Assembly: GCF_016026235.1 (NCBI RefSeq)
Contig: NZ_CP065614.1
Source of the DNA: Escherichia coli
Lineage (GTDB): Bacteria; Pseudomonadota; Gammaproteobacteria; Enterobacterales; Enterobacteriaceae
Strand: one strand, 5' to 3'
DNA length: 64,000 bases
Part shown: positions 9,001-12,000 of the stretch, one piece after another
Layout: each line of letters opens with the position of its first letter
Position numbering within the stretch: the stretch's first letter is position 1
Made by a program: the position numbers

Positions 9001-12000
9001 TCTTTACTCTTTCTTATAAAATCAATAAGATGCAACCCAATTCCAAGCCTCATATCTTTAGTATTAAATATTGGCACATCAGTTTTTCCCTGATTACCAT
9101 GCACATACCTGCTAACTTCATCCACAACCTCTTTAAAGTTATCTAAGAAAAATGATTGGTGCTCATGGTAAAAAACAGGTGGAATAGCATTATCAAAGTG
9201 GTCGGTTAATGTCATATATCCATATGGAGAGTCATGATCAATGATATACGCATTAGCACCAAAATCCACAGTATGATGTGTTTTATTTAGTGGGAGTGTT
9301 TCTTGATGATTGGAAATTTCAACCCCAAAAAAAACAAAATCGTGGTTAGCTATTTCTTCAATATCCTCAGAGAATGTGTTTTTATATGTTTGTATATTCT
9401 CAGACTTAATTTTATCAAAGGACTTAATATTAAGAGTATTATTTGACAGGTTAGCGTTACTTTGATGTCTGAAGTTAAAATCAGAATTAATAATAATAGA
9501 GAGCAAGTGACGTTCATCCGAAGAAAGAGGATGAGTTTTTTGTATTATTTCAGAAAGATAGTGTCTGGACACCTTATCGAGGTGCTCAAGTGACCGAAAT
9601 GATGACCGTGCTCCAGATGGCGCTTCAATAGAAAGATTTAATGATTTGAAACTGGTCCCTTGAGAGAACATTTTACTATAACTTTGCGCTGCTATAGACT
9701 TCCTTAAAAAGCGTTTCACAGTATCAGCACAGTGATCTAAATGTTTTTCACTTATGCCAGAAGAGGATGAGTTTGTTACGCATGATATGTTTTTTTGTAA
9801 TGCTTTTGTATCTTTGTTCGGATTTATTTTTCCATCAACAAGATCAATATTGTTCTGAACATTAATATGATTTACTGCTTCAGGTATTTTCATAAAACAT
9901 CCCCCATTATGTGCGTTTTTATCTGCAGTTATTTAGAATAATATTATCTAACTTAATATTTTCTTGTATGTATTATAACGAACATATTTTAATATGTTGT
10001 ACGATTTTCACTCTGAAATCCCCTGAGTTTAATCACACTTCCTTTACTGAAAGGAATTATTGCAACAGTATTATTTGTTTTTGGATATATATCTTGCGCC
10101 TTGTTATGTAGTTAATGCTCAGAATATGATAGATAAAATAGAGACGCAGAACAGGGCATGCTCATAACATGATGATAACATAAAAAATTAGTAACAATAA
10201 ATGAAAGAATCATGGGCGCTCAACAAAAAGAGAGCTAAATAGCTGCGCGGAATAGTAGGCTGTGTCCCTTAATCATCTGAGTTATAGTAACTGTCTGTTT
10301 ACACAACATATTGAACTATGGCTCGCTACGACCTTCCCGATGAGGCATGGACCATCATCAAGCCCCTGTTACCTCCTGAACCCGCCACACCACGGGCCGG
10401 ACGCCCATGGGCTGAGCACCGTAAAATCATCAATGGCATGTTCTGGGTGTTATGTTCCGGTGCACCATGGCGCGATTTACCCGAACGATATGGGGCATGG
10501 AAAACTGTTTATAACCGCTTTAACCGATGGTCAAAGTCAGGCGTGATTAATATTATTTTCAACAGGTTGCTTTCGCTACTTGATGCAAACGGCTTTATTG
10601 ACTGGTCTGCCACCGCGCTGGATGGCAGTAATATCCGGGCGCTGAAATGTGCCGCCGGTGCTCAAAAAAACATCCCGATATCGACGGAGATAATGGGCCG
10701 GGTCGCTCTCGCGGCGGTTTTGGCACCAAAATCCATCTGGCAACAGACGGAAGTGGCCTCCCGTTAAATATCGTGCTAAGCCCCGGACAAGCTCATGAAA
10801 GCCAGTTCGCGCAACGACTTCTGGACGGGATTGGCGTTCAGCGTCAGAACGGCAGCATGAAACGCCGTGGACATGCGGTACTGGCTGATAAAGCGTATTC
10901 AGGGCGCGCATTGCGCAATGAGCTGAAAAATAACGGTATAAAGGCAGTAATCCCCCGAAAGTCAAATGAGAAAATGGCATCGGATGGACGTGCACAGCTT
11001 GATCGTGATGCGTACCGCAATCGTAATGTCGTTGAACGGTGCTTTGGGCGGCTGAAAGAATATCGCCGCATCGCCACGCGTTACGACAAAACGGCGAGAA
11101 ATTACCTGGCGATGGTGAAACTGGGCTGCATCCGACTCTTTTATCAACGCTTACGTAATTAAGGGACACAACCTAGATCACTTAGAGGGAACTCAGCCCG
11201 GATTGTGCGATCTGATCAATCGCCAAATCAAAACAAATCACCAACCCTTCCACAAAATGTACCCGGATTCACCGTACGAATACGTCACGTTCTGCCATAC
11301 CTGCCGTCGTTTTGATTTATACGAAACAGAAGCGGAGATGAAGGCGGATGACCCGAAGTGGTGGTGATTTTCAGCCCCGACCGCTGAAACGCCTGTTCAC
11401 AGCCAACCAGTGCTGGACGTCCTTCCTGGATGCGGGCGGTCTGCGCGATATCGGGGTTGAGGCTGTCACCAAAATGCTGGCCTGCGGCACGCGGATACTG
11501 GGAGTGAAGGAATACAACTGCGATAAACCTGAGTGCCCCCACGTCAGATACGTCACTAACTCATGCGGCAGCCGTGCCTGCCCGTCCTGCGGAAAAAAGG
11601 CCACAGACCTGTGGATAGCGACACAGCTGAATCGTCTTCCTGACTGCGACTGGGTACACCTGGTCTTCACCCTGCCGGACACGCTGTGGCCGGTGTTCGA
11701 AAGCAACCGGTGGCTGCTGAATGACGTGTGCCGTCTGGCGGTGGAGAATCTGCTGTATGCCGCCCGGAAACGGGGCAGGAACCCGGTATCTTCTGCGCCA
11801 TCCACACGTATGGCCGTCGTCTCAACTGGCATCCGCATGTACATGTGTCTGTAACCTGTGGAGGTCTGAATAAGCATGGTCAGTGGAAAAAGCTGAGCTT
11901 CCTGAAAGACGCGATGCGTTCGCGGTGGATGTGGAATATGCGGCAACGGCTTCTGAAAGCGTGGTCAGAGGGGCTGGCGATGCCGGAGTCGTTGTCACAT

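Follow-up and report, generated by a model that had tools for sequence, protein, structure and literature searches.

Elements of the IS630 family are Tc1/mariner-like and insert at a TA that they duplicate, typically within CTAG. Those of the IS91 family, to which ISSbo1 with its rolling-circle Y2 transposase belongs, have no inverted repeats and generate no target duplication; their right (origin) end abuts GAAC or CAAG and is the end from which they transpose by rolling circle, with cases of aberrant termination known. Among IS5-family elements, ISSfl7 has been reported in fimD of S. boydii (PMC4374849), and the literature on it that we found is limited to passing mentions, with no description of the ISSfl7 ends. 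All of these elements meet on the invasion plasmids (pINV) of Shigella and enteroinvasive E. coli (EIEC), which are well-known IS mosaics and include the EIEC ST270 pINV strain series (CP050863/CP050866) described in PMC7373316.

Here we analyzed a stretch of 64,000 nucleotides from Escherichia coli contig NZ_CP065614.1, referred to below as the window. The window comes from a Shigella/EIEC invasion plasmid of the pINV type, and its best overall match is E. coli pCFSAN029787_01 (99.1% identity, with 93% of the first 25 kb covered). About 345 bp upstream of the type III effector gene ospC2, and adjoining its upstream region, lies an IS630 remnant that is interrupted by ISSfl7 and then joined to a headless copy of ISSbo1 (Table 1). 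Our analysis indicates that this locus is very probably a fossil stack of transposition events on an invasion plasmid, finished by one plain deletion. The plasmids used for comparison are the EIEC ST270 pINV NZ_CP050863.1 (L002), pCFSAN029787_01 (L003) and the plasmid of S. dysenteriae NCDC 599-52 (L004).

Table 1. Features of the ospC2-proximal IS cluster and the reference copies used to delimit them (window coordinates).
Feature	Position	Strand	Remarks
Complete ISSbo1 copy A, 1714 bp	6448..8161	+	reference for copy B
ospC2, type III effector gene	8439..9893	-	PF06128, E = 2e-182; named ospC2 in relatives
TA, IS630 target dinucleotide at left end	10236..10237	+	same TA flanks intact IS630
IS630 remnant, nt 1-20	10238..10257	+	identical to 62289-62308; last TA (10256-10257) is the ISSfl7 target
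Complete ISSfl7, IS5 family, 916 bp, GG...CC ends	10258..11173	+	ends set from independent copies
ISSfl7 transposase	10318..11162	+	orfA 10318-10767, orfB 10647-11162 in -1 frame; fused product (predicted) 281 aa
Second TA copy of ISSfl7 target duplication	11174..11175	+	first copy at 10256-57
IS630 remnant, nt 21-91	11176..11246	+	68/71 identical to intact copy
ISSbo1 copy B, IS91 family, nt 234-1714	11247..12726	+	headless copy
CAAG beside ISSbo1 copy B right end ...CCTATACGT	12727..12730	+	unchanged ancestral flank, collinear with L003, L002
Complete ISSbo1 copy C	24730-26443	-	
Intact IS630, 1153 bp, reference copy	62289..63441	+	flanked by TA within CTAG; NF033545 transposase

The two IS630 pieces were delimited against the intact IS630 of the window, whose transposase scores 255 bits against NF033545 (cut-off 100) and whose flanks read cTA...TAg, with TA at 62287-62288 before the element and at 63442-63443 after it. 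The intact copy itself sits at the TA of a CTAG inside a further IS91-family element on the minus strand (62164-62288 and 63444 onward), which is only about 90% identical to ISSbo1. Positions 10238-10258 match the first 21 nt of the intact element at 21 of 21 positions, with TA ahead of both copies, which moves the left boundary from 10239, as given in the sequence-only reading, to 10238. This left piece holds the 11-bp terminal repeat AATAGCTGCGC. On the far side of ISSfl7, IS630 nt 19-91 align by BLAST with 11174-11246 (E = 9e-29), and the segment comprising nt 21-91 is identical to the same segment in L002. The resumed piece had been taken to be 68 bp long and to end at 11242; it runs to 11246 and measures 70-71 bp, because AACC at 11243-11246 resembles both IS630 and ISSbo1 and the C at 11246 can be assigned equally to IS630 or to ISSbo1 nt 233. 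Excision of 10258-11175 restores an IS630 sequence reading ...AATAGTAGATC.... The right end of this IS630 has been lost, so that only the TA on the left is seen of its own target duplication. Identity to the intact copy is about 96%, both in the window and in the longer L002 remnant (149/156), which makes the remnant an older or variant copy.

The site at which ISSfl7 entered IS630 reads ...AATAG TA GGCTG...CAACC TA GATC. Taken alone, this site fits a duplication of either TA or TAG, because the element begins with G and IS630 also resumes with G. We therefore compared the flanks of independent ISSfl7 insertions, which read gTA on the left and TAg on the right at the IS630 site of the window, cTA and TAa next to lsrK (L015), tTA and TAg in L016, and cTA and TAg in both L017 and L011. 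A 2-bp TA duplication is consistent over six independent sites. Removal of the 916 bp and one TA from L015 yields a sequence that is 100% identical over all 300 bp to the best-ranked E. coli genomes, and this reconstructed empty site is found with at least 80% coverage in 4,183 E. coli genomes. Since the restored sequence matches uninterrupted genomes, L015 represents a simple insertion. The only duplication that fits all of the ISSfl7 sites is thus the 2-bp TA, and the G on the left is the first base of ISSfl7. With TA as the duplication, ISSfl7 is an element of 916 bp with symmetrical GG...CC ends, and its target context is C, T or G, then TA, then G or A. Two 3-bp duplications were also considered and rejected: TAG fails at L015, where the right flank is TAA, and CTA fails at the IS630 site (left flank GTA) and in L016 (left flank TTA).

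These comparisons sustain part of what had been proposed from the sequence for this insertion. An IS5-family element, ISSfl7, does lie nested in the IS630 left end with a target duplication, and its description as a complete element of 916 bp agrees with the boundaries and 16-bp inverted repeats found here. When the element ends were checked on independent ISSfl7 copies, nesting and duplication stood and the TAG target gave way to TA; TAG can literally be read at this site, but it would imply an element of 915 bp. The target duplication of ISSfl7 is now fixed as TA from independent insertions.

The terminal inverted repeats of ISSfl7 are 16 bp long with one mismatch (GGCTGTGTCCCTTAAT / GGTTGTGTCCCTTAAT, at 10258-10273 and 11158-11173). 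The copy is 99.5-100% identical at the nucleotide level to Shigella and EIEC copies annotated in RefSeq as 'IS5-like element ISSfl7 family transposase', and the name used here was judged against those RefSeq-named copies rather than an ISfinder entry. The first reading frame, orfA, matches PF13340, and orfB matches both DDE_Tnp_1 (PF01609) and PF13586. An A7 slippery run lies at 10664-10670, where the two frames overlap, and the fused 281-aa protein scores 318 bits against NF033580 (transpos_IS5_3; cut-off 110). The same CDS is annotated by RefSeq in other genomes as a programmed frameshift, and production of the full transposase by a predicted -1 frameshift at the A7 run fits this arrangement. 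By its size, GG ends, 2-bp duplication and frameshifted transposase, ISSfl7 would fit the IS427 group of the ISfinder classification. Compared with other copies, the right inverted repeat here carries a G>A change (CACAACC versus CACAGCC in every other copy examined), which is common to all plasmids with the insertion at the IS630 site. This shared change is what an old and possibly immobilized ISSfl7 copy would show.

Further ISSfl7 sequences were noted in the window and elsewhere. A second ISSfl7 at 8161-8328 consists of the last ~140 bp only (nt ~777-916), 100% identical to the other copy; it directly follows the right end of ISSbo1 copy A, placing ISSbo1 just 5' of a GAAC inside ISSfl7. 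Beyond the fragment stand a TA and 27 bp from the left end of an inverted IS629, and the second ISSfl7 is complete in other plasmids (L006-L008). The chromosome of E. coli FDAARGOS_943 (NZ_CP065615.1) has 32 places that match ISSfl7. Any ISSfl7 match is present in 44 of 5,426 E. coli genomes, most having none, and various E. coli chromosomes carry one copy of a relative with about 90% identity.

To the right of the IS630 remnant lies ISSbo1 copy B, which is 99.2% identical to complete copy A, carries the N-terminal zinc-binding domain Zn_Tnp_IS91 (PF14319) and the HUH-type Y2_Tnp domain (PF04986), and is annotated as ISSbo1 in relatives. Its earlier designation as a 5'-truncated IS91-family copy proved correct: nt 1-233 are missing, so that the left (termination) end is gone and the 90-codon small upstream ORF is short of its first 51 codons (57%). 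Because copy B does not have the left end that belongs to a complete IS91-family element, we treat it as a remnant. Its tnpA is split into ORFs 11348-11854 and 11728-12555 by a 1-nt deletion in a G run near 11771. As neither copies A and C nor the L002 copy show this deletion, it must be either a mutation private to copy B or a sequencing error in the homopolymer. Both ORFs match NF033538, with 194 bits for the 3' ORF and 107 bits for the 5' ORF, so that only the 3' ORF passes the cut-off of 125 by itself. The right ends of copies A, B and C all read ...TTTCCTATACGT and are followed by GAAC, CAAG and GAAC, respectively. At the other end of copy A, a further IS91-family element (transposase ORF 5029-6261) ends ...AATTCCTATCGA at 6447 and abuts the TGAAC of copy A; the element at 5029-6447 and copy A form a head-to-tail pair, and the GAAC at the copy A left end looks like the target used by the upstream element.

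The origin of the join between IS630 and copy B is indicated by the layout of L002. After ISSfl7 in L002, IS630 extends to approximately nt 176, and between it and a complete ISSbo1 stand an IS66-family transposase fragment and then 300 bp from the left of IS629. The window corresponds to this layout minus L002 positions 3848-4818 (971 bp), and the pieces absent from the window and kept in L002 are IS630 nt 92 to ~176, the IS66-family fragment, the IS629 left end and ISSbo1 nt 1-233. One nucleotide (C) is common to both sides of the junction, or AACC on the assumption that the CCC run has one C too many; the junction reads CCC, whereas a clean AACC-mediated deletion would give CC. Critically, L003 and L002 are both collinear with the window from the copy B right end through CAAG and on toward repA. 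Because this right end and flank are ancestral, copy B has not moved and has lost its head in place.

This result bears directly on the proposal that IS630 was cut by IS91-B. According to that proposal, a 5'-truncated copy B inserted into IS630 at nt 91, for instance as a prematurely terminated rolling-circle product. Rolling-circle transposition with aberrant termination has precedent in the family, and the right end of copy B does lie on a proper CAAG target. An insertion should nevertheless be followed by resumption of the target on its far side, and to the right of copy B there is no IS630 from nt 92 onward but the flank of the complete ISSbo1 in L002 and L003. Furthermore, L002 keeps both IS630 nt 92-176 and ISSbo1 nt 1-233, separated by 650 bp of further IS debris, and an insertion of copy B would not also remove IS630 nt 92-176 together with the IS66 and IS629 fragments. 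We therefore consider such an insertion extremely improbable. Since copy B has not moved, IS630 was not cut by an insertion of this element, and the junction is better described as a 971-bp deletion relative to L002.

We then asked how widely the junction is distributed. A search for the IS630(91)/ISSbo1(234) junction, with CC or CCC allowed, returned no match in 72,556 plasmids, and the IS630/ISSbo1 junction was likewise without a match in 5,426 complete E. coli genomes and in GTDB representative genomes or JGI metagenome contigs. The full L002 layout was found in only two PLSDB records, both of them EIEC ST270 pINV from the 8-3 isolate series. Absence of the junction from all collections searched suggests that the deletion is recent and private to the lineage of the window, and the junction may serve as a strain or plasmid marker. 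The same uniqueness could also result if assembly or sequencing had introduced an artefact, through a chimeric join or the collapse of repeats, into a plasmid that is really L002- or L003-like, and the CCC at the join and the private 1-nt deletion in the G run of copy B both resemble homopolymer errors. Misassemblies, however, join at long repeats, whereas here only 1-4 nt are common to the two sides; both flanks are otherwise collinear with relatives, and comparable real deletions with other endpoints occur in independently sequenced sister plasmids. An artefact is accordingly a distinctly unlikely source of the junction, and we retain a deletion in the plasmid itself as the preferred explanation.

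Two such deletions are independent of that in the window. In L003 (6297-6846), an IS629 fragment is joined to ISSbo1 nt 1149, and in L004 (7049/7050), ISSfl7 nt 566 is joined to ISSbo1 nt 1. The ISSbo1 copies also show mosaic SNP patterns, with 3 sites separating copy B from copy C and 13 separating it from the L002 copy, which indicates that copy-to-copy recombination has occurred and that the immediate ancestor of the window need not equal L002 exactly. Together with the position of the L004 deletion, which ends exactly at the ISSbo1 left end, and with the different IS91-type 5' module to which most S. boydii and S. dysenteriae plasmids switch ~29 nt inside that end (L001 7830 onward), these SNPs would accommodate an origin in several steps, in which recombination between ISSbo1 copies replaced the left part of the resident IS91-family element and a smaller deletion followed, or in which ISSbo1 promoted an adjacent deletion. 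We judge this quite improbable: the endpoints in the window lie inside both elements and not at an IS end, and one deletion from the existing L002 layout explains everything. In total, the ISSbo1 left end is removed by, or marks one boundary of, three independent deletions (in the window, pCFSAN029787_01 and S. dysenteriae NCDC 599-52). It is conceivable, if rather unlikely, that the IS91-family element itself, initiating or terminating its rolling circle aberrantly, makes this region a deletion hot spot; were this the case, the junction in the window would be one footprint of ISSbo1 activity and not the result of random illegitimate recombination.

To place the ISSfl7 insertion in time, we queried plasmids with the ospC2 flank joined to an artificial uninterrupted IS630 left end. 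Most of this query is carried by 82 plasmids. Among the best 60 of the 82, 58 gave single-piece matches that all stop exactly at the ISSfl7 interruption, and the remaining two span the interruption by way of internally deleted ISSfl7 copies; ISSfl7, complete or internally deleted, thus appears to occupy this site in all 82. An uninterrupted IS630 left end beside ospC2 was not found among the plasmids searched with this query. Plasmids with ISSfl7 at the site come from S. sonnei, S. boydii, S. dysenteriae, S. flexneri and EIEC, suggesting that the insertion is old and shared. Because ISSfl7 is nested in IS630 with a duplication, it postdates IS630. The order previously proposed, IS630 followed by the IS5-family element and then by IS91-B, holds as a succession of events, IS630 preceding ISSfl7 and ISSfl7 preceding the IS630/ISSbo1 junction; its last step is replaced, an IS91 insertion giving way to what is probably a lineage-private deletion.

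These observations can be assembled into the following model. First, an IS630 copy would have entered a TA upstream of ospC2. Second, ISSfl7 would have entered the TA at IS630 nt 19-20 (context GTAG), duplicating it. Third, an ancestor would have arisen in which IS630 was cut back to approximately nt 176, with the IS66-family fragment and 300 bp from the left of IS629 between it and a complete ISSbo1 whose right end lay at CAAG. Fourth, and in the lineage of the window only, 971 bp would have been lost from IS630 nt 92 to ISSbo1 nt 233, with the ends joined at C. The nesting and duplication of the first two steps are seen directly in the window, the layout of the third is present in sister plasmids, and the endpoints of the fourth are given by alignment. 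The deletion would most plausibly be due to illegitimate recombination or replication slippage rather than to transposase action at an IS end. Any order of events within the third step is likewise deduced. The order previously proposed leaves out the IS630 truncation near nt 176 and the entry of the IS66 fragment, of IS629 and of ISSbo1, each of which may have come before or after ISSfl7. What reads as a three-step history therefore hides at least three further events. More generally, several intermediates can have vanished behind a junction of two IS fragments, which cautions against deriving the order of events from one sequence alone.

The locus is ordinary transposon debris, and its junction product is without evident function, copy B having lost its left end and having a frameshifted tnpA. 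No promoter-like site was found at the junction in 11,100-11,400, where counts equaled the shuffled expectation. A 54-aa chimeric ORF (11203-11367) starts with TTG in the IS630 remnant, crosses the junction and enters the last part of the ISSbo1 small ORF; it has no Pfam match. The value of the locus lies in a clean ordering of IS events beside ospC2 on pINV, which has little importance beyond bookkeeping.

Compared with the families to which its parts belong, the locus is recognizable throughout. The IS630 remnant corresponds to nt 1-91 of the resident intact IS630 and retains the outer TA and the same 11-bp terminal repeat; it differs from the intact element in being just 91 nt long, in being split by ISSfl7, and in ending before the start codon. 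Copy B shares the sequence of ISSbo1 and, like the other ISSbo1 copies, has its right end next to CAAG or GAAC. The nested IS structure as such is of an already known kind in the pINV IS mosaic. With pCFSAN029787_01 and CP050863/CP050866, the window shares the same ospC2, the same block of IS630 remnant interrupted by ISSfl7, and the same downstream flank on the repA side, whereas the 971-bp deletion of the window is absent from all of them, and pCFSAN029787_01, the closest plasmid, carries a different deletion that runs from the IS629 fragment into ISSbo1.
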